A DNA stretch of 64,000 bases from Nitrososphaerales archaeon (GCA_965197925.1 CBDAOC010000014.1:10697-74696), one strand, 5' to 3'. Positions 9,558 through 58,376 are shown, counted from the first letter of the stretch. Notes: a model not told the origin generated them from the letters alone. Translations and numbers: made by a program.

Positions 9558-11042
9558 TCAAGCGCTTGCGTATCCTGCCGACTGCGCGTTAAATGCAGGC
9601 GTGTGTATAGGGTAATAATCATTCTCATGCTCTGTTCCCATAATGTAATATCTCATACTATCCATTCCATGATCTCCATATTCTATAGGGTATTCATCTT
9701 TCTGTGTAAACGTTCTTTGATCTTCTCTGCGATATGCATACACACCCAGCTCATCTCTCAAGCATTTAGGATGCCCAAAAAGGTTTTGATCTTCACCTTC
9801 TTTTTCAAATCTTGTCAAAGCAAACTTGTTAAACTTTAGAGTCCCAGATTCCAAATGATTCTTTACAGCATCAATACCTGGAAGAACATCTTTTTCAGCA
9901 AGGTTTACTGGAAAGCCTTGGCGCATCATCTCATCATTGTGCTCTGCGTTATGATCACAAAACATATTTTCAACTTCAGGAATATTCCACTGCCCTCTAA
10001 CAGTATGTATTCTTTCAATAAACTCTTGCAATCTTATTTTACTTCTGTATATCTCTTTGAAATGATAGTGAACTCCATTAGGGTCTAATGCCCAGAAGTT
10101 ACATGAATACGGGCGGGAATGCCCATAGTCAACAGATACATTCCACCTTGTATCAGAAGAAAACTGATCTGTATTTGGTATTTCAACATCATGTAACTCT
10201 GAAAGATACATATCATACACGACACCTTCTTGAGCACACCACAAACCAAGATATCCTCTTTTATACCTTGTTCCTTTCATTCGCTGAAGCTTTGATATCT
10301 CCAATTCACCTTTTTCCGTCCAGCATTCATTATCTCTATCCCAGTATTCAGGATTCTCTTTATGAGTCATCTTATATCTGAATATATGCGGGGAGTTATT
10401 AAGGAAGTGCTGCTCAAAACTTGGATTGACATCACCAAACACTTGAGTTCTCTGTCCGCTACGAGTTCTTCTTGATACGAGTTCCCAGTGACTTTCGGTA
10501 AACTCTTCTGCTTGAGGTATGCCCATCGCATGAAACTCTGTAGATAAGAAGTCGTCTGGGTGATTCATTCCCAAAACATCTACACGAGATCCATTACGAT
10601 ATAAAAACCTTTGTGGGTTCTCACCGCCATAACCTATTACATAATTAGTCTTGCTAAGCGTTGGATTGTATCCAAGTATCTTATAGTATGTTGGTATAAT
10701 AGAACCTTTAACAGACTCTTTTGTAAGTCGCAGAAAACCACATCTACTTCCAGGCTCGCTGAGGCATTTCCAATGTATCTTGAAAGCAAGTATCTGTGAT
10801 TTTCCAACAGCAAATGGGCCTTCAACAAAAGACTCATCAGATGCATCACGAATAAAATCCCAGCCTGGAGTCCCTTCTGCAGGAAAGAAGAATCCTCTGA
10901 TGTCTCCAGCATCATTAAAATGACCTTTGAGCCACCTTGCAGGGTATACTCTATCCTCTATAGGATCAGGACTCGTCAATCCCGCTATCTGCTGTTGCAA
11001 TTCGTCTGTTAGTATTGACGATTTCGGCTTCTTGCTCATCAT
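9558..11042 (-). CDS. terL: terminase large subunit
   Basis: Walker A-like GPFAVGKS, DVNP coupling motif, nuclease motifs VDYG and DHGMDSMRY. Confidence 0.9.
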   Translation of the reverse strand: MMSKKPKSSILTDELQQQIAGLTSPDPIEDRVYPARWLKGHFNDAGDIRGFFFPAEGTPGWDFIRDASDESFVEGPFAVGKSQILAFKIHWKCLSEPGSRCGFLRLTKESVKGSIIPTYYKILGYNPTLSKTNYVIGYGGENPQRFLYRNGSRVDVLGMNHPDDFLSTEFHAMGIPQAEEFTESHWELVSRRTRSGQRTQVFGDVNPSFEQHFLNNSPHIFRYKMTHKENPEYWDRDNECWTEKGELEISKLQRMKGTRYKRGYLGLWCAQEGVVYDMYLSELHDVEIPNTDQFSSDTRWNVSVDYGHSRPYSCNFWALDPNGVHYHFKEIYRSKIRLQEFIERIHTVRGQWNIPEVENMFCDHNAEHNDEMMRQGFPVNLAEKDVLPGIDAVKNHLESGTLKFNKFALTRFEKEGEDQNLFGHPKCLRDELGVYAYRREDQRTFTQKDEYPIEYGDHGMDSMRYYIMGTEHENDYYPIHTPAFNAQSAGYASA

Positions 11043-11520
11043 AGTTCATCAAAGCCTCTTTACCTTTTTGTATAGCTGTCCAAACATATTCCATAGCTTC
11101 GCGAGAATCAATGCCATAATATCTTTGAACAAACTTTAGGAACTCATCAGCATTAGCTATGTCTCTTCGTTTAGCGAAGTTCGGATTTGTTCTCTCAAGA
11201 TACCAAGCACCAGAACGCCAGTCTTGATCAAGTATTACTTTTTCAAGTTGATGTATTTCAGCTCTTGCTACTTCCATTACGACTTTACTATAGAATACAG
11301 CAAGCAACTTCTCTTCTTCTGTGAAAAGATATTGACCTCCAGCCTTTTCCTCATACTTCAATACCCTTTCTATTAGTTCTTCAGATTCTTCATTCCATCT
11401 ATTATATCTTCTTCTCGGCAATCCACAAGCATTACACAGCCTTGTAATATCACCACCACAAGATTTAGCATATCTTATTAAGTCCTGCATAACTACGTTC
11501 ATACGATATATGCTTGCCAT
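10966..11520 (-). CDS. putative terminase small subunit
   Basis: directly upstream of and overlapping terL; N-terminal HTH-like segment and DWRSGAWYLER motif; ATG at 11520 with GGAGG RBS. Confidence 0.7.
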   Translation of the reverse strand: MASIYRMNVVMQDLIRYAKSCGGDITRLCNACGLPRRRYNRWNEESEELIERVLKYEEKAGGQYLFTEEEKLLAVFYSKVVMEVARAEIHQLEKVILDQDWRSGAWYLERTNPNFAKRRDIANADEFLKFVQRYYGIDSREAMEYVWTAIQKGKEALMNYDEQEAEIVNTNRRIATADSGIDES

Positions 11521-11547
11521 AAAAACCTCCAAACTGAATTTATCATT

Positions 11548-11588: not shown

Positions 11589-11602
11589 GGCCCATTCGGG
11601 CC
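11589..11602. promoter_or_regulatory. GGCCC-N4-GGGCC palindrome between divergent promoters
   Basis: GGCCCattcGGGCC; other copies at 15422, 32299, 47641, 51129, 58970. Confidence 0.6.
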
Positions 11603-12600: not shown

Positions 12601-13637
12601 TGTCTCAAGCATTTGAACAGATGAACTTATTTGGTGAAGAAGAACTCCCCATTCAGAAGAAACCTAAGTTTGCTCCTGCTTATATTGCTGATGCTCAAGA
12701 AGAAGACAGCGAGTATGAAGAAATAGAGCAAATAGAAATGGAAGAGTCTGTAACCGCAAAGACTTGGCTAAGGTATTTCGGAGGCAAACAAGCTGCTGTA
12801 AGAGATATTTTAAAGTTCTTCCCTACAGGTATAACAGATATTGTATCGCCTTTTGTTGGCGGAGGTAGCGTGGAGCTTGCTTTAGCAGTTCGTGGTGCAA
12901 AAGTAATTGCATACGACAAGTTTGATTTGCTTGTGAATTCGTGGAATGCTATATTAGATGATGCTGAGTCTTGTGCAAGGCTTGCAAGAAGAATATACCC
13001 TATGAATCCTGAAAAGATAAGGTATATGGTTAAGAATCATCTATTCTATAATATCAAAGACCCAAAAAAGCTTGCAGCTTTTGTATGGGTTGCCAACAAG
13101 CAGGACTGGAGTGGACGGCTTTTATCTGCAACTGGTTTTGCAGATCATAGACCAGGTATGACTTTAGATAAGGATACTGGTCAGGACATATATGAAAGTC
13201 GTAGAAAAATAGTCAGAAGAGCTCTTGATCCTATGTTTTGGAAGAACTGGCATAATCCAAACATTGAGGTTAGAGAAGGTTGCTGGACAAAGTCTTTGAA
13301 AGAGTGGCATCCAGATGCGTTCCTATACGCAGACCCGCCTTATGTTGGGCGTGAATATGTGTATGGAGTCTATAGAACTAAAAAGACTCACCCAGACTAT
13401 GAGGAATTTGACCATGAGAAGTTCGCAGAACACATGATACAAAGACCTAATGGGTTTGTGTTGAGCTATATGAGAGACGAACACGGTATGATTGAGGATC
13501 TATACAAGGATTTTGAGATAGTTGATATGAGATGGCATCAGGGTTCTGTTGCATCTCGTAAGGTGCGTGATAGCAAATCAACGAAAGAGATAACTATCAT
13601 CAAGCCGCCTGCTATAAATCCATTGAATGTAGCATAA
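12600..13637 (+). CDS. D12/Dam-class N6-adenine DNA methyltransferase
   Basis: YFGGK, PFVGGGSV (SAM-binding) and DPPY catalytic motifs. Confidence 0.9.
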   Translation: MSQAFEQMNLFGEEELPIQKKPKFAPAYIADAQEEDSEYEEIEQIEMEESVTAKTWLRYFGGKQAAVRDILKFFPTGITDIVSPFVGGGSVELALAVRGAKVIAYDKFDLLVNSWNAILDDAESCARLARRIYPMNPEKIRYMVKNHLFYNIKDPKKLAAFVWVANKQDWSGRLLSATGFADHRPGMTLDKDTGQDIYESRRKIVRRALDPMFWKNWHNPNIEVREGCWTKSLKEWHPDAFLYADPPYVGREYVYGVYRTKKTHPDYEEFDHEKFAEHMIQRPNGFVLSYMRDEHGMIEDLYKDFEIVDMRWHQGSVASRKVRDSKSTKEITIIKPPAINPLNVA

Positions 13638-14620: not shown

Positions 14621-15073
14621 ATGAGTAAAGTGAAAGTAGTTAAACCTGAAGAAGGACTTAATGATATGTTTGAAGACAGTTTATTGAAAGACACTCTTGC
14701 TATAACTGTAAACTGCAGAGGTATAATGGGTAAAGGTATCGCTTTAGAATATAAAAAGCGATACCCGAAAGGTTACAGGCTTTACAAAGAAAGGTGTCTT
14801 TCAGGTCTTGTAAAGCCTGGAGAACCTTTCTTTCAGGGAAACTCGTTTATTATGTTTCCTACCAAAGACCATTGGGCTTCTCCAAGTAAAATAGAATGGA
14901 TCAGAAATGGTTTGATGAGGATAAGAGATGCTGAAATCAAACATAGGCTGATATTGCCTGCTATTGGATGTGGTAACGGAGGTCTGAAGTTTGGAGCTGT
15001 ATTACCGTTGATACACAAATATCTTGGTCAAGTATCTTATGATGTTCTGGTCTACCCTCCACAGATACAATAA
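14621..15073 (+). CDS. macro domain ADP-ribosylhydrolase (DarG-like)
   Basis: VNCRGIMGKGIA, FPTKDHW, PAIGCGNGGL motifs. Confidence 0.85.
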   Translation: MSKVKVVKPEEGLNDMFEDSLLKDTLAITVNCRGIMGKGIALEYKKRYPKGYRLYKERCLSGLVKPGEPFFQGNSFIMFPTKDHWASPSKIEWIRNGLMRIRDAEIKHRLILPAIGCGNGGLKFGAVLPLIHKYLGQVSYDVLVYPPQIQ

Positions 15074-15104
15074 CACTTAACATGTGTTAATTAAAGTATG
15101 TGAA

Positions 15105-15440
15105 CGCGCTGACAACGGCGCTGACATGCGCGTCAGCGCCGCCGCGCCAATGGCCGCAAGGGTTGGTGAGAACGGTGCTGATGCTGACACGAGGTCACGC
15201 ATGCACTCACATGAGATATTTCAAAATCCAAAATACTTAACATATGTATAGTGTAAAAAATTAATTGTGATTCTTGTCAGCGCGTCAACACCTTCTTCTA
15301 AACCCTTATGGCCATTGGTGTGGCGGTGCTGACATTGATGGCCATTGAGTTTGTGCCACGAGCTCACGGCCCCATTGACGTGGCGGTGCTGACAACGGTG
15401 CTGACACGATGTCAGCACCGCGGCCCAAGCGGGCCGCACA
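15105..15440. repeat. iteron cluster A (direct and inverted GCTGAC/GTCAGC repeats, CCATTG boxes), putative origin element
   Basis: about 9 (T/C)GCTGAC copies in both orientations in a GC-rich spacer upstream of the primase-helicase; shares long stretches with 51125-51780. Confidence 0.7.
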
Positions 15441-15575
15441 AGGAGATGCGAATGAGAAGAAAAATGGATTGGATAAGATTAGAGGTTCGTAGATATGGTT
15501 TTAGTCAGTATTGCATTAAAGAGGCTATGAAGATTCTTGTGACTTGTCATATTTTAGATTAACCACATCTCTAAT

Positions 15576-46093: not shown

Positions 46094-47548
46094 TTATTTT
46101 ACATTCTTGAAAATCATCTGCCCTCTTCTTCTGTCACGCTCTTTTTCCCAATACTCTTGTGCTTGTGCTTCAGACATTCTGCCTGTATTCACCGCATCTG
46201 TCAACCACATATTCAAACTTAGCATGCTATTATCAAAAGACATGTTAGCCTGTTGAACTTGAATGTTGATTCCAGCGAGAAGTTTCTCTTCTTCAAATAT
46301 ACTCCTACGAAGTCTAAACTCTACCAGCTGATTAATGTTGCTTCTCATCAAAGCTATATTGCATTGTCTTGTCATTGACTCATTGATAGAAGTCTGAGCA
46401 TGATTGATAAGTAACGCATAGTGATTCATTTCATACATTGCTCTTGTCTCTGTGAATGAATCTGATCCAGAGAATAATAACTGATTAGACTTCAATGCCA
46501 TCATTATCTGTCTGTCAAGTATGTCAATAAAGTCTGGCACGCCTCCGAGATTTGCTTTATTCATACCAGATAGTAGTTCAGGCTCCATAACCTCACTACC
46601 ATATGATAGAACTTTACCTGGGCCCATCTCCTCAAGCTCTTTCTTCAACATCGCAAGGACTTCGGTTACAAACGCTCCTCGCTTGCTTTCGGTCTTTACC
46701 ATTTCTGCGATAACTTCTCGGTCTATTCGCATCAACAAAGCAGGCCAAACTAATGTTTGAAGGACTTGTTGATAACTCTTGAAAAACTCAACAACCATTA
46801 TCAAATGAAATAGAGCTGCGTCTACTAAAGGTTTGCCGTATGGGTTTCCGACTTGAGCATATAGCGGTTTATATTCAATAGTAGGATCAAAGTGAAGAGA
46901 TACAAATGGCTCATTCCGTTGCCTTTGACCCAACTCAAAAAACTGCCCAGTTTTAGATTCTGATCTTTTGTATACTGCCGAATATGGATCTAATCCTACA
47001 AGTCGTTTTGGTATGTCGTCTTCATATGCAGACTCATAGAAATATGCACCGTGTAAGAACATTGACTCTGATATCTGATCTATAAAACCATCAATGCTTA
47101 CATCATACAATCCCATATCATCAAACCATCTGTCCAATATCGGATGAGATTCTGGATAAATATCCCAGCCTGGCTTCACATACTCTTGAAAATCTGTAAT
47201 AGCTGCAGATACCTGTGGATTAGAGTTTGCCATTACCTGGCGGACTTGATGTGTTGGTAAGTCTGCAAGGTCTTTGGTAGTTAGTTGTCCGTAACTCTTT
47301 ATGCCATTTTCAGGTCTACTGACGACATTAGCAAAGCCTGTGAAAGGATTCTCATCAAATACACGAGCTATCATACCGCTTTGAGCTATAGCTCTTTCGT
47401 CATACTGTGTTTCGCCTACAGAAAGCAGTTCGCTAAATTCCTCATGCTGTTTTCTTATGTAATTGTCCTGAACTCTTTTATCTCTCGCTAATACAGCATT
47501 GTTATAGCGAACTTGATTATTTAGTTGGATGCTTTCTCGTAGTGCCAT
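46094..47548 (-). CDS. portal protein
   Basis: 484 aa first gene of the head operon; NPYGKPL motif. Confidence 0.75.
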   Translation of the reverse strand: MALRESIQLNNQVRYNNAVLARDKRVQDNYIRKQHEEFSELLSVGETQYDERAIAQSGMIARVFDENPFTGFANVVSRPENGIKSYGQLTTKDLADLPTHQVRQVMANSNPQVSAAITDFQEYVKPGWDIYPESHPILDRWFDDMGLYDVSIDGFIDQISESMFLHGAYFYESAYEDDIPKRLVGLDPYSAVYKRSESKTGQFFELGQRQRNEPFVSLHFDPTIEYKPLYAQVGNPYGKPLVDAALFHLIMVVEFFKSYQQVLQTLVWPALLMRIDREVIAEMVKTESKRGAFVTEVLAMLKKELEEMGPGKVLSYGSEVMEPELLSGMNKANLGGVPDFIDILDRQIMMALKSNQLLFSGSDSFTETRAMYEMNHYALLINHAQTSINESMTRQCNIALMRSNINQLVEFRLRRSIFEEEKLLAGINIQVQQANMSFDNSMLSLNMWLTDAVNTGRMSEAQAQEYWEKERDRRRGQMIFKNVK

Positions 47549-47600
47549 TTTATGAGCTTTCCATTTAGTTAGGATTGATTAGGGATTTATGCTTACATAA

Positions 47601-48022: not shown

Positions 48023-48388
48023 GCGAACCCAATGGGCATGCGGGTTTATAGCATAACTACTACACAAATAATAACACATATATCATAACACATGCACAAA
48101 AGCGGGCACTTTTTATCCGACTGCACAAAATGGGGCAATCGCTTGCGAACCCAATGGGCATGCGGGTTAGATGGACATTGCACAAAAAGGGGCATCATAA
48201 CTGCACAAAAGCGGGCAGTTTTTAGAACCCTGCAATATAGCGCGCGCGATTATACAATTAACGTTGCGAACCCAATGGGCATGCGGGTTAGATGGCTATA
48301 ACATAATAATAAATATGAAAAATGAAACAATAATTATTATTTTATGGCAAATACTTTACAGTGTTAACCACTCACAAACCCAATGGGC
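48023..48388 (+). repeat. spaced repeats GCGAACCCAATGGGCATGCGGGTT x3 plus TGCACAAAA-N2-GGGCA x4
   Basis: 24-mers at 48023, 48145, 48266 (spacing 122 and 121), partial at 48377; 16-mers at 48092, 48122, 48179, 48202. Confidence 0.85.
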
Positions 48389-48557
48389 CACTACGTTGGC
48401 ACGAACCTTGCATTTATGGTGGCATGCGGAGGTGAGTTGCCTCCGTATGATTTGACATCAAACAACGGAATCATAACAATAGCAAACATGATTCCCTTAT
48501 GTATGGACAGTCCATACAAAATAACACAAGCGAAAGCTTGAAAAGGATTTAGCAAAC

Positions 48558-49211
48558 ATGGCACGTTTAACGTATACCAGTGGCACAGCTTACAATCGGA
48601 AAGAGTCCATCATGATAACCACACCTTTTGACATTAATGACTTATTTCAAAAAGTTATTGATAATCCTGCCCTGCCATTAACAGGTAAGGATAAAGGGTT
48701 GAATGATAGTGTATACGGTGTTATATCCAAAGGGTTTGACATCAAGTATAATCATGCAAAAGTATGCGAACTGCTTGAATCAAGCGAGTTCCATAATGAA
48801 GTAGATAACCATGTAGAAGCGACTGTGTTGGCAAGGTTAAAAAAGCAACCTCGCGACATAGGCAGTGGCAGTGGCGGCCCGCGCGGCGGGAATAACGGAA
48901 TTACCAATGCATTAAAAATTGAGATAGGTGAATTGGTAATCGGAGCATCATGTGTTAAGGTTGGTATAGAACCCAGTGATGCGAGTGATTATGAAATCAC
49001 TAAAGAATGGGTTGTTTCTACAATCACAGGGAAGAATGAAAACAAGCCAAAACGGCGCGTTAAGAATGATAAGGAACGCGTAGAAGAATTGACAGTTAAA
49101 GTGGTTATGGCACTCCATAGCGCTGGAATTTCCAATCATGATATTGCGAATGATAATGATATGGATTTGACAATTGAGCAGGTTGACGAAATCGTTGGAT
49201 TTAATCTATAA
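48558..49211 (+). CDS. hypothetical protein, first early gene
   Basis: 217 aa ORF with AAGGA RBS, possible C-terminal HTH, followed by a terminator. Confidence 0.7.
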   Translation: MARLTYTSGTAYNRKESIMITTPFDINDLFQKVIDNPALPLTGKDKGLNDSVYGVISKGFDIKYNHAKVCELLESSEFHNEVDNHVEATVLARLKKQPRDIGSGSGGPRGGNNGITNALKIEIGELVIGASCVKVGIEPSDASDYEITKEWVVSTITGKNENKPKRRVKNDKERVEELTVKVVMALHSAGISNHDIANDNDMDLTIEQVDEIVGFNL

Positions 49212-49266: not shown

Positions 49267-49426
49267 GGAAGCGTAGGAGCGAACCGAACCCCAATGGGAA
49301 GCGCAGGAGCGAACCGAACCCCAATGGGAAGCGCAGGAGCGAACCGAACCCCAATGGGAAGCGCAGGAGCGAACCGAACCCCAATGGGAAGCGCAGGAGC
49401 GAACCGAACCCCAATGGGAAGCGCAG
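49267..49426 (+). repeat. tandem array of 5.3 x 30 bp
   Basis: GGAAGCGCAGGAGCGAACCGAACCCCAATG, one mismatch in the first copy. Confidence 0.95.
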
Positions 49427-49427
49427 A

Positions 49428-49491
49428 GGATACAAGAAACTCTTTTGGGATTATGAAAAGAGTCTCCGAATTAACGGACTGATGAGTATCC
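49428..49491 (+). ncRNA. type II hammerhead ribozyme (core variant)
   Basis: GGAUAC-aa-GAAA-CUCUUUU/AAAAGAG-UC-UCCG/CGGA-CUGAUGA-GUAUCC; all three stems pair; 2-nt insertion before GAAA. Confidence 0.7.
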
Positions 49492-49562
49492 ATCAGAATC
49501 TGCATATCGGATGCGGATTTATGGATTTTCCAGAAATTATGCATAGATAAAAAAGGAAAAAG

Positions 49563-49829
49563 ATGTATAAAATAGTTCAGGGTGATAGAAAAGACGATTA
49601 TAGAGTCCCAATTGGGATGCAGTCGGATTATGACGCTGATTCTATTGAATCAGCAATAGAATCAGCAAATAGGTTTTGTATGGATTCGTATGGAATAACT
49701 CTACAATGGGAAGATATGGAAGTAGATAATTCTGGTATGTTCCCAGTTCACGCAAGAGCTTATGGGATAGATGAAGGCTCTTATCTTGAAATAGAGGTCC
49801 GTAGCGGATACCCAGTATTTCCCTCGTAG
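49563..49829 (+). CDS. hypothetical early protein
   Basis: AAGGA RBS, 88 aa. Confidence 0.65.
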   Translation: MYKIVQGDRKDDYRVPIGMQSDYDADSIESAIESANRFCMDSYGITLQWEDMEVDNSGMFPVHARAYGIDEGSYLEIEVRSGYPVFPS

Positions 49830-49886
49830 CAATCTTACAAACATCGGATGCGGATTATTCCGAATCTGATAAGGAGTTTACGGATT

Positions 49887-50582
49887 ATGAAACGTCTACG
49901 TCCTGAGGAAATACAGGACAGGATCAAACGGCAAGAGGATGCGGAGCGTGAAAGACGTGATATCAAACCAGAGCATCGGATAAAGTCTTCGGATGATATC
50001 AAACGTAAAGAGAAGATCAACAAGGATCGGATAGAGTCTCGTAAAGCAGAATATGAGAAAAAGAGACCCGATCCTATTGATCCGAAAACTACATCGGATA
50101 ACCCAAAGCCGAAAACTGCATCGGATAAGTTTATACCAGCTGGTATCTCTTTATCCAAGCACACTCGGCAGTGCTTGAAATCAGTCGGAATTGGGAATGA
50201 ATATCAACTCGGTGTCGTAAGCTTGGAATATCTTGAATCCAAGCATAAAATCTCTCGGATGCCAGACCTTGCGTATCAGGAATTCAAGGCGTGGTATATT
50301 TGGTATAAGAATGAGCTTGAAATAGAAGAACTTGAAGAGAAGCTTGATGCCAAAGAGAAAAAAGGGATTGAGTATCAGGAGAAACTCTCGGGAATCAAGT
50401 CCAGTATTGAAATGGAGAAGAATGCTGGAACTTTGATATCGGGCGTATCAATTGACAGATCCAAACGAGGCAGAAATCGTGGGCTTTATACACCTCCGAA
50501 GAAGCACCGTGAGATCGCACTCATAAATCGTTTAGAAGAGAAACTAATGCAACTTGAAGCTAAAAAGGAGTCAAAATCATGA
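49887..50582 (+). CDS. highly charged hypothetical protein
   Basis: AAGGAG RBS before ATG 49887; K/E/R-rich. Confidence 0.65.
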   Translation: MKRLRPEEIQDRIKRQEDAERERRDIKPEHRIKSSDDIKRKEKINKDRIESRKAEYEKKRPDPIDPKTTSDNPKPKTASDKFIPAGISLSKHTRQCLKSVGIGNEYQLGVVSLEYLESKHKISRMPDLAYQEFKAWYIWYKNELEIEELEEKLDAKEKKGIEYQEKLSGIKSSIEMEKNAGTLISGVSIDRSKRGRNRGLYTPPKKHREIALINRLEEKLMQLEAKKESKS

Positions 50583-50752
50583 AACGGATAGATCGTATTG
50601 AACAAGCTATAGAACAGCTTAGAAGCGATAGCGTGAGAATAGCATTATCGTATCGCAGATGTCTCATAAATCATAGTGAAGCATCTCGGATGATATATGA
50701 TAGGAATGTAATAATCCGAAAACTTCAAAGAGGTGAATATCTTATTAGATAG
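50579..50752 (+). CDS. hypothetical protein (57 aa, not in ORF track)
   Basis: AAGGAG RBS, ATGA overlap; MKRIDRIEQAIEQL... Confidence 0.6.
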   Translation: MKRIDRIEQAIEQLRSDSVRIALSYRRCLINHSEASRMIYDRNVIIRKLQRGEYLIR

Positions 50753-50767
50753 CTTTGAAAGTCGGAT

Positions 50768-50838
50768 AAAGGGGCGGCTTGGTCTGAAGATCACCAGAAT
50801 ACTGGTGTGATTCAGGCTGAGTCGCCCCTTTTTTATTT
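50768..50838 (+). terminator. long hairpin with T-tract
   Basis: AAAGGGGCGGCTTGGTCTGAA...TTCAGGCTGAGTCGCCCCTTT followed by Ts. Confidence 0.7.
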
Positions 50839-50868
50839 AAAGACATCTATTACAAAGGAGATAGAATC

Positions 50869-50955
50869 ATGTATGAGATATGTAAAGCAGTGGCTACGAT
50901 CTTAGTCTTTGCCTTAGCAGTAGTCGTGATGCTGGTTGCCTACATAGTCTTGTAG
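50869..50955 (+). CDS. 28 aa single-pass membrane peptide
   Basis: AAGGAG RBS; MYEICKAVATILVFALAVVVMLVAYIVL. Confidence 0.55.
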   Translation: MYEICKAVATILVFALAVVVMLVAYIVL

Positions 50956-51124
50956 GAACTAATTTAGACGCGGCGGATTAATTATTAGAAATCGCATTAT
51001 GGATAAAGATCGCGAAGATCTCATAATAATCGGATGCGGATAGTCGGATACTGGAGTCGGATATTTGGCAAAAGGTATGATAGCAAAGGCAGATTTCAGC
51101 TGTAAAGCTACCTTTGCTCGTCTT

Positions 51125-51780
51125 TTTCGGCCCATACGGGCCGCCAAAAGCGGTGCTGACGGTGCTGACGGGAGCGGACAAAATTTGTGTCAGCACCGTC
51201 AAGTCAATGGCCACAAGGCTCCCACTTAACGATGCTGACACTTTTAAGATATTTTAAACTATGTTAAGTTAAGTAAATACTCATTAAGTATTTTGGAATA
51301 AAACACTTATCATAGAATAATATATCTTTACAACTCACTTAACGGATGCTAACCTATTTTAGCAAAACACTTATCATAGAATAACAACAATTTGTTGATT
51401 AGTCAACTTATGATAACCGTTGAATTGTTTGTGTAGTAAACAGACGATAACCATTGTATGTATTTGTAGTAAAATCCCGTCCAGTAAACATATGATAACC
51501 TATTTCTATTCTGGCACGCCTCAATAAAAGATATATTTTATCTTTTATTACTTACTTGATAAATATGTTTATTTATGGTATAATATGATTAGTAGGTTTG
51601 ATTAGGGTTTTGGGTGTCATAATGTCGGATGCGCGTCACGCGTCAACAGCGCTTCACGGATGCACGGCCCCATTGACGCGGCGGTGTCTATGCACGGCCC
51701 CATTGAGTTTGTAAATCCGACCTGCGGCCCCATTGGTGTGGCGGTGCTGACAACGGTGCTGACAACGGTGCTGACGTTAG
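51125..51780. repeat. iteron cluster B flanking an AT-rich core, putative replication origin
   Basis: TGCTGAC repeats (12 bp period GGTGCTGACAAC), GGCCCCATTG x3, AT-rich 51240-51610 with AAAACACTTATCATAGAATAA x2. Confidence 0.7.
51556..51584 (+). promoter_or_regulatory. sigma70-type promoter
   Basis: TTGATA-N17-TATAAT with extended -10 TG. Confidence 0.6.
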
Positions 51781-54004: not shown

Positions 54005-54070
54005 AGCAACACGAAAGACCTGATGCTCAATCAGGTCTCGGAGGCATAGCCTTCCTGATGAGTAGTTGCT
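54005..54070 (+). ncRNA. type II hammerhead ribozyme
   Basis: AGCAACAC-GAAA-GACCUGAU/AUCAGGUC-UC-GGAGGC/GCCUUC-CUGAUGA-GUAGUUGCU; predicted cleavage after C54039. Confidence 0.9.
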
Positions 54071-58060: not shown

Positions 58061-58314
58061 TGCATGTAGCAAAGTTTACTTACGAAAGAAGCTATGATAA
58101 CACAGACACTCGTGCAGGAGTGCTTACATTAACTCATATCAATGATGGAAAAGTCGTTGAGATATGGACTATGTGGAATGTTGGAGCTGATGGCTTTAGG
58201 ATAGAGAACGAGCTATCTGGAGGGGTTGTCTTTAAAGCTGGCTACGGAATGCATGACTTATGCTGGGGTTGGCTTATCAATAAGGCTGTTGAGATAGAAG
58301 AATTGAATGACTAA
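58060..58314 (+). CDS. hypothetical protein
   Basis: AGGAG RBS, TAATG coupling. Confidence 0.65.
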   Translation: MHVAKFTYERSYDNTDTRAGVLTLTHINDGKVVEIWTMWNVGADGFRIENELSGGVVFKAGYGMHDLCWGWLINKAVEIEELND

Positions 58315-58376
58315 GCAACACGAAACACCTGCTCATAAAGCAGGTGTCGGCTAACGCCCTGATGAGTAGTTGCTTA
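58312..58376 (+). ncRNA. type II hammerhead ribozyme
   Basis: UAAGCAACAC-GAAA-CACCUGCU/AGCAGGUG-UC-GGC/GCC-CUGAUGA-GUAGUUGCUUA; predicted cleavage after GUC at C58348. Confidence 0.9.

Follow-up and report, generated by a model that had tools for sequence, protein, structure and literature searches.

The window analysed here is a stretch of 64,000 nucleotides (G000:C14:10697-74696) from a contig of 74.7 kb. Late genes run leftwards from the portal gene (47548) and early genes run rightwards, and an array of the pentamer CGGAT occupies the earliest-gene region, where the early genes adjoin the portal operon (Table 1). To the left of the array are paired TGCACAAAANNGGGCA boxes, which are likely an enhancer for the sigma-54-type promoter at 48397-48411; this promoter, as well as those in the Poribacteria loci described below, was assigned by its match to the sigma-54 consensus. 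A terminator-like inverted repeat separates the ORF at 48558 from the 30-bp tandem array. The first CGGAT site is found 17 nt downstream of a hammerhead-like ribozyme, a motif whose cores are CUGAUGA and GAAAC. An Rfam search did not include a hammerhead at 49428-49491 among its matches, and the four weak matches it returned, all below gathering score, were treated as chance. Two more hammerhead-like ribozymes are located on the plus strand of the early region (54005-54070 and 58312-58376, fold z -4.1 each). Copies of ATCGGATGCGGAT lie at cassette borders in the region.

Table 1. Features at and around the CGGAT array, in window coordinates
Feature	Position	Strand	Remarks
Portal protein gene, first late gene, family marker	46094..47548	-	Relatives carry PF06074
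Four TGCACAAAANNGGGCA boxes, two pairs	48091..48217	+	Same paired element in Poribacteria chromosomes
Sigma-54-type promoter	48397-48411		34 of 100 shuffles also contained one
217-aa ORF	48558..49211	+	No family match; fold prediction uninformative
30-bp tandem repeat, 5.3 copies	49267..49426	+	GAACCC(C)AATGGG common to left array
Hammerhead-like ribozyme	49428..49491	+	Three stems, CUGAUGA and GAAAC cores, GUC site near 49465, z -2.6
ATCGGATGCGGAT(T/A) double site, copy 1	49506..49519	+	Copies 2 and 3 at 49843-49856 and 51029-51042
CGGAT array, 21 exact words	49508..51062	+	10 coding in three frames, 11 non-coding
88-aa ORF, 2 sites	49563..49829	+	No family match; missing in a strain variant
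231-aa ORF, 6 sites	49887..50582	+	Long and short strain forms
57-aa ORF, 2 sites	50579..50752	+	
Long hairpin then T run, terminator-like	50768..50836	+	5 CGGAT sites past it
28-aa hydrophobic ORF, no site	50869..50955	+	
GGCCC-N4-GGGCC palindrome, GGTGCTGAC and GGCCCCATTG repeats, AT-rich stretch	51126..51775	.	Twin at 15312-15406

Structure predictions were uninformative (pLDDT 56 and 35) and a fold search gave no match at E <= 0.001. Residues ~89-125 of the ORF 49887 product bear a weak likeness to the RNA polymerase alpha-CTD fold that is not significant (Foldseek E 2.1, Atlas matches <0.9). To the right of the array, the composite element at 51126..51775 is a candidate genome-end or origin element. 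The sequence-only reading had placed the array between putative terminus repeats and a putative origin. Repeats do flank the array, but the left array includes the host-type paired element upstream of the sigma-54-type promoter, and the right-hand element has its twin upstream of the primase gene, where no CGGAT cluster is found. Both twin GGTGCTGAC/GGCCCCATTG elements (15100-15450 and 51150-51775), one of them before the primase gene, are candidate origins. The GGCCC-N4-GGGCC intergenic palindrome recurs near promoters at 11589, 15422, 32299, 47641, 51129 and 58970, and may be an operator, possibly a methylation-sensitive one.

Although it is recorded as part of the genome of an ammonia-oxidising archaeon, the contig is a mis-binned tailed phage of ~75 kb, and this portion of an archaeal genome record is thereby reassigned to a bacterial phage. 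Its gene content includes terminase subunits, portal, capsid, tape measure, lysozyme, primase, helicase, RusA and a D12-class methyltransferase, and no integrase match was found among its proteins. The tetranucleotide correlation of the contig is 0.21 with its bin and 0.58-0.72 with Poribacteria, and BLAST of the contig against the bin's other contigs gave no match. Portal profile matches were obtained in 20 of 176 Poribacteria genomes, weakly in one of 201 Chloroflexota, and in none of 40 archaeal relatives, while tail proteins share up to ~41% identity with those at Poribacteria portal loci. Of the 176 Poribacteria genomes, 86 have the TGCACAAAANNGGGCA boxes as a pair, and a reversed control gave 0. 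At the loci that were viewed the pair adjoins sigma-54-type promoters. The paired pattern gave 0 hits in IMG/VR. Because of the tetranucleotide profile, the portal and tail relatives and the paired TGCACAAAANNGGGCA element, Poribacteria, which are sponge symbionts, are well supported as the probable host. An archaeal host is ruled out by the tetranucleotide value of 0.21, the lysozyme, the sigma-70-type promoters and the absence of the portal family from the 40 archaeal relatives. Terminases of cultured phages share no more than 24-31% identity with that of the phage at the closest. As a separate observation, paired TGCAC(A/G)AAANNGGGCA boxes, a likely enhancer for sigma-54 promoters, mark out a large regulon within a single Poribacteria lineage, and the phage has borrowed these boxes.

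All 21 plus-strand CGGAT positions given by the sequence-only reading are exact. There are two reverse copies (50080 and 50714), and the 21:2 strand bias has a binomial P of 7e-5. TCGGAT accounts for 14 of the 21 sites. The remaining contig predicts 0.7 copies per strand; the sequence-only reading had put the expectation from base composition at about one. When the array region was shuffled 1000 times preserving dinucleotides, CGGAT had a mean of 2.2 and a maximum of 7; trinucleotide shuffles gave a mean of 6.8 and a maximum of 15, and the commonest 5-mer of whatever kind in the shuffled region reached at most 16-17. A local Markov model likewise returned CGGAT as the top local 5-mer of the window. 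All 21 sites have different eleven-base contexts, and 16 sites (P 2e-9) are left when repeated copies, namely the three ATCGGATGCGGAT repeats and a single local duplication, are collapsed. Sites are spaced irregularly (6-329 bp), at a density of 13 per kb. Similar density elsewhere on both strands, which would have spoken against a special signal, was not encountered: the maximum on one strand per 1.57 kb was 6 across the remaining 19 contigs of the bin (2.9 Mb) and 3 on the minus strand of the phage contig. This is tempered by Poribacteria chromosome: among 40 stretches of it, which at 48% GC have an approximately three-fold higher background than the phage, CGGAT reached 14 in one of 80 strand-windows and 10 in two. 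Outside of the array the window contains 26 copies on the plus strand and 28 on the minus strand, and the whole contig contains 66 copies besides those of the array.

Protein sequence does not account for these words. As the sequence-only reading had noted, copies fall in both coding (10) and intergenic (11) DNA, and the coding copies occupy all three reading frames. Codon resampling of the three ORFs, the check that had been proposed for this point, gave a mean of 0.75 and a maximum of 7 in 20,000 trials, against the 10 observed. Rare codons are used by the sites (CGG, 23 of 623 Arg codons; TCG, 35 of 869 Ser codons), and of the 9 dipeptides in ORF 49887 that are compatible with the word, 6 carry it; over 19 control ORFs the corresponding figure is 5 of 269. 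None of the 15 one-mismatch neighbours of CGGAT is clearly enriched on the plus strand (CGTAT, 5 copies, P 6e-3). The base before the word is T in 14 cases, G in 5, A in 2 and never C, within a contig that itself lacks CCGG. A palindromic TCNGA reading was ruled out, as CAGAT and CTGAT are not enriched. No helical or codon phasing of the sites was found, which argues against a fixed protein scaffold geometry.

Strain contigs from three runs, two samples and one study allowed the array to be compared between co-occurring phages. In a variant lacking ORF 49563, positions 49520-49830 are replaced by 24 letters that include a CGGAT, and in another strain the two letters before site 49881 and the downstream gene are altered while the CGGAT is retained. 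At least four strain variants lie inside the array among the 40 of 565 variant rows listed, and cassettes are swapped between strains in this region, a shuffling that appears to resemble that of terminal early regions. CGGAT is retained or newly written in co-occurring strains, but the relatives' proteins drop 2-3 of the 6 sites in ORF 49887. Short strain forms of this ORF lack the first 86 residues, which hold 5 sites; together with the losses in homologues this indicates that single sites are not fixed. Close relatives of the phage were found solely as proteins and sequencing-run contigs. Relatives of the portal, the terminase and ORF 49887 were absent from IMG/VR, from JGI metagenomes and, by pattern, from GTDB, and the ORF 49887 family was found in 0 of 176 Poribacteria genomes. 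With the codon null, the independent sites and the strain contigs in agreement, the earlier reading of oriented sites not explained by protein sequence alone is supported, and the CGGAT array is a real signal kept by selection.

The least probable of the accounts we weighed, and a highly unlikely one, is that the words have no function: local duplication and gene conversion would have scattered remnants of the cassette-border repeats through an early region that shuffles quickly. Three ATCGGATGCGGAT copies do sit at cassette borders, one 27-bp duplication holds two sites, and both the swapping of cassettes and the loss of sites from ORF 49887 in relatives would be expected of such debris. However, the number of distinct contexts and of sites left after collapsing repeats do not agree with it. 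Repeat decay would also leave one-mismatch neighbours, which are not enriched, and the word is carried by rare codons in three frames.

We propose, with a probability of roughly one in three, that the array is a Chi-like stop for the host AddAB enzyme beside a genome end. An exact, asymmetric and unphased one-strand word suits an enzyme tracking along DNA, and that the array extends across the terminator-like hairpin at 50768-50836 was also counted in favour of the Chi-like reading. Chi is described as active when approached from its 3' side (10.1101/2021.07.08.451572), so CGGAT on the plus strand would require a DNA end located rightward of 51,062, from which the host AddAB helicase-nuclease would enter. 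The region would sit in a terminal repeat or by another free end, such as an injected end or a rolling-circle tail. If the terminal repeat were short, a very dense array would be needed for the nuclease to be halted before the repeat is consumed. The resected end would then recombine, and the genome would be circularised or concatemerised. Recombination driven by the host in this manner would replace recombination genes of the phage's own. Comparison of 94 proteins with Pfam and PHROGs, in which most had no match of any kind, gave no match to a strand-annealing protein, an exonuclease or a RecBCD/AddAB inhibitor; a RusA-like resolvase is encoded. With so many proteins unmatched, recombination genes may have escaped notice. 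Each of four Poribacteria genomes examined contains an AddB-like protein, whose first 282 residues, the expected place of the Chi pocket, did not align to B. subtilis AddB. Among the options of the sequence-only reading, the translocase or protection factor fits best in this Chi-like form, as a proposal rather than a demonstrated role.

No terminal repeat was present at the ends of the contig. Summed contig depth is 22-31 at 47565, 45-50 for reference-identical contigs at 47.7-50.7 kb, and at 51.1-52.4 kb it is 26-27 in one run and 46-51 in the other, so that the two runs of one sample disagree. In host chromosome samples CGGAT has an observed/expected ratio of 1.10. Over 800 kb of four Poribacteria genomes bearing the paired element, leading and lagging copies number 1200 and 1075 (52.7%; rank 53 of 515), although a single genome among them has no leading-strand bias, and over 800 kb of three other Poribacteria genomes they number 1149 and 1115 (50.8%). 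The over-representation and strong leading-strand bias typical of Chi were thus not seen for CGGAT in the host chromosomes. TCGGAT looks biased in G041 (214:165) but is mixed in other Poribacteria samples (76:71, 75:65, 68:90, 85:74, 93:65 and 136:84). Since no word with Chi-like skew was found in the sampled Poribacteria the host-skew test is weak, yet it gives no support. In seven Poribacteria genomes (G041, G043, G045, G121, G141, G180 and G191) the GC skew near dnaA is very weak, and the 1.6 Mb sampled contains no 5-8-mer with strong polarity. Around the 20 Poribacteria portal matches, the sampled stretches, which cover these loci in part, held no exact-word array.

Known phages with end-clustered signals offer partial parallels to the array. 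Chi sites of the Rec-minus lambdoid phages LLS and MD8 are oriented and clustered at the right end, with counts of 20:3 and 32:0 (PMC12315714). Like these, the array consists of a short asymmetric word, locally concentrated and mostly on one strand, in a phage without a recognised recombination module. Unlike them, it is built of a 5-mer without established Chi status, is ~25 times denser and is confined to 1.6 kb; in addition, the probable host here has an AddAB-like enzyme rather than RecBCD. In P1 and its relatives Chi sites lie close to the ends, which are terminally redundant, with no preference between coding and non-coding DNA, and they are proposed to drive host-dependent circularisation (10.1101/2021.07.08.451572). 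The present sites also lie in both coding and non-coding DNA, but those of P1 occupy both strands and extend across tens of kb, whereas these are on one strand in one small block.

The B. subtilis Chi, AGCGG, is read by AddAB (PMC4614115). Phage SPO1 (NC_011421, 1-13,185) served as a control with a known 5-mer: AGCGG occurs 29 times on the plus strand and 17 on the minus strand with 5.6 expected, a five-fold enrichment that makes it the second most enriched 5-mer. Without hairpin-paired copies the counts are 21 and 9, and five of the nine are in the first 1.5 kb. The terminal redundancy of SPO1 is about 13.2 kb long, and the gene at 13,504 is marked in the record as the first outside of it. 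SPO1 and B. subtilis thus share with the present case a five-letter word with CGG, an AddAB-type host and enrichment in an early-gene terminal region, yet the word differs and SPO1 has only 2.2 copies per kb in both orientations. The density of the array is far above that of LLS, P1 and SPO1, which was counted against Chi, as was the finding of only 2 E. coli Chi sites in the first 30 kb of T5. Altogether the array would work like end-clustered Chi but cannot be filed as Chi, the usual chromosome skew not having been seen in the sampled hosts.

A different reader is possible, in that CGGAT could be a loading, nicking or binding site for a directional phage protein at the genome end, acting in terminal-repeat duplication, packaging start or staged injection; candidates would be the 48558-49211 product or the alpha-CTD-like ORF 49887 product. 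We consider this rather unlikely. It is in keeping with the position of the array between two repeat blocks whose CCCAATGG and CCCCATTG words face each other, and a reader encoded by the phage would not depend on host chromosomes being polarised, consistent with the weak CGGAT skew of Poribacteria. Phage T5 offers a precedent, with oriented 17-bp repeats kept across its terminal-repeat border (10.1101/866236); its repeat region 3 and injection stop signal resemble the array in having oriented repeats that edge an early terminal region. The T5 17-bp repeat includes ATCCGAC, a shared core that is probably chance. Unlike the bare 5-mer written into genes here, however, the T5 repeats are long, conserved and non-coding. 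Against a phage protein, structure prediction, Atlas and fold searches found no candidate reader, an unphased and irregularly spaced 5-mer with 66 more copies in the contig is short for a phage-specific operator, and the small terminase gene (terS, 10969-11532) is 38 kb from the array. As a separate observation, the terminase genes (9561-11532) head a second late operon, 35 kb from the portal operon (46094-47548).

A distant relative, the 144-kb phage contig G109:C2, has a portal 29% identical and shares portal, terminase, capsid, tail and methyltransferase genes with the phage. Its early block (~50,700-66,000) adjoins the terminase genes, is sharply bounded and contains 250 GATC where 66 are expected. 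On the coding strand GGAT is found 169 times versus 83 in reverse, and CGGAT 55 versus 30. This wealth of GATC and of coding-strand GGAT beside terminase genes agrees with an end-acting phage protein, but all NGGAT words are raised rather than CGGAT exactly. Early blocks loaded with particular words are thus a recurring trait of the wider family, as G109:C2 shows, but its block is not the same exact signal. The block also has a 4-6-fold GATC excess, higher GC and a strong loss of AGAA, GAAT and TAC.

Short of even odds, though somewhat better supported than any one mechanism, is the broader statement that CGGAT is either a hitherto unrecognised Chi-like word of the uncultured phylum Poribacteria or a site for some direction-sensing machine, as yet undescribed, that handles phage genome ends, with arrays in either case written into end-proximal early genes. 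Few bacteria have a known Chi-like word. The usual basis for guessing one is chromosome skew, of which the sampled Poribacteria have almost none. At 13 copies per kb the array would offer one concrete candidate word for a host enzyme amenable to heterologous expression, and if the word is not Chi, the array indicates an undescribed directional reader. If the broader statement is true, one-strand pentamer arrays could reveal end-processing signals of unculturable bacteria. Because the SPO1 redundancy is enriched for the Bacillus Chi, the general idea can be tested in a laboratory phage-host pair. The literature searched, from which most subscription journals are absent, contained no CGGAT phage arrays, SPO1 Chi or GATC clusters in first-injected DNA, and nothing on pentanucleotide strand bias in terminal repeats.

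All 21 sites are on the coding strand as well as on one DNA strand, so that reading of DNA and reading of RNA are not separated by these data. CGGAU could be read on an immediate-early transcript freed by the upstream hammerhead, where an endoribonuclease or an RNA-binding protein other than CsrA, of phage or host, would time decay or be titrated; this we hold to be unlikely. The start of the array just past the hammerhead-like ribozyme is suggestive of it, as is the site that follows the ribosome-binding site and precedes the 49887 start codon, which is kept in the strain with another downstream gene. The GGAT bias in G109:C2 follows the coding strand too. Nonetheless, the GGA of the sites is not in loops (its mean unpaired value is 0.33-0.44, that of other GGA 0.49), the other two hammerheads (54005 and 58312) are not followed by arrays, and five CGGAT sites are past the terminator-like hairpin. 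CsrB and RsmZ are GGA sponges that present ANGGA in hairpin loops. The array has the ~20 GGA-containing words on one transcript that such RNAs have, but its words are not ANGGA (2 of 21), are not in loops and are spread over genes, and CsrA was found in none of five Poribacteria genomes nor in the bin, so that the RNA-binding option of the sequence-only reading fails in its CsrA form. With positive controls for the CsrA search, a CsrB/RsmZ-type CsrA sponge was ruled out. No RNA datasets were among the listed holders of phage sequence.

Lastly, an asymmetric restriction-modification or BREX-type system of the host could have CGGAT as its target, with the words massed in a single direction in the first-entering DNA as a decoy or one-strand methylation mark, which we regard as very unlikely. 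An asymmetric 5-mer with a penultimate A resembles type III and type IIG sites, and restriction has strongly shaped the phage, which has 0 CTAG, 0 CCGG, 1 TCGA, 2 GTAC and 0 CGACG in 74.7 kb. In addition, C never follows CGGAT in the array (0 of 21, versus 13 of 66 elsewhere), as though an overlapping GATC interfered. T7-like avoidance of type III systems leaves all genome sites in one orientation, and in a P1 pac-like site the sequence targeted by the cognate methyltransferase is clustered at terS or ori. Here CGGAT is found on both strands outside the array, in numbers that rule out genome-wide type III-style polarity and mean that head-to-head pairs are not avoided. M.CbeI targets GGCC. The best solved relative of the phage methyltransferase, 7m6b, is associated with M.CbeI in a listing and is not a CGGAT enzyme, leaving the methylation marks suggested by the sequence-only reading without support. 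GGCC is kept by the phage and avoided by Poribacteria, which fits a phage GGCC methyltransferase. Restriction sites are lost, not gained, in early-injected regions (PMC12455610), which also argues against a decoy.

Near-total avoidance across the contig extends to CTAG, CCGG, TCGA, GTAC, CGWCG, TTATAA, TATATA and AATATT, while AGCT, like GGCC, is kept by the phage and avoided by the hosts. A macro-domain protein (14621-15073) possibly reverses ADP-ribosylation. By eye, a 352-aa ORF (L001:8330-9388, minus strand) has the likeness of an aerolysin-type pore-forming domain, with no Pfam or PHROG match. Five other contigs of the bin (C2, C8, C9, C10 and C16) have tetranucleotide correlations of only 0.10-0.47 with the main chromosome and may be mis-binned too.
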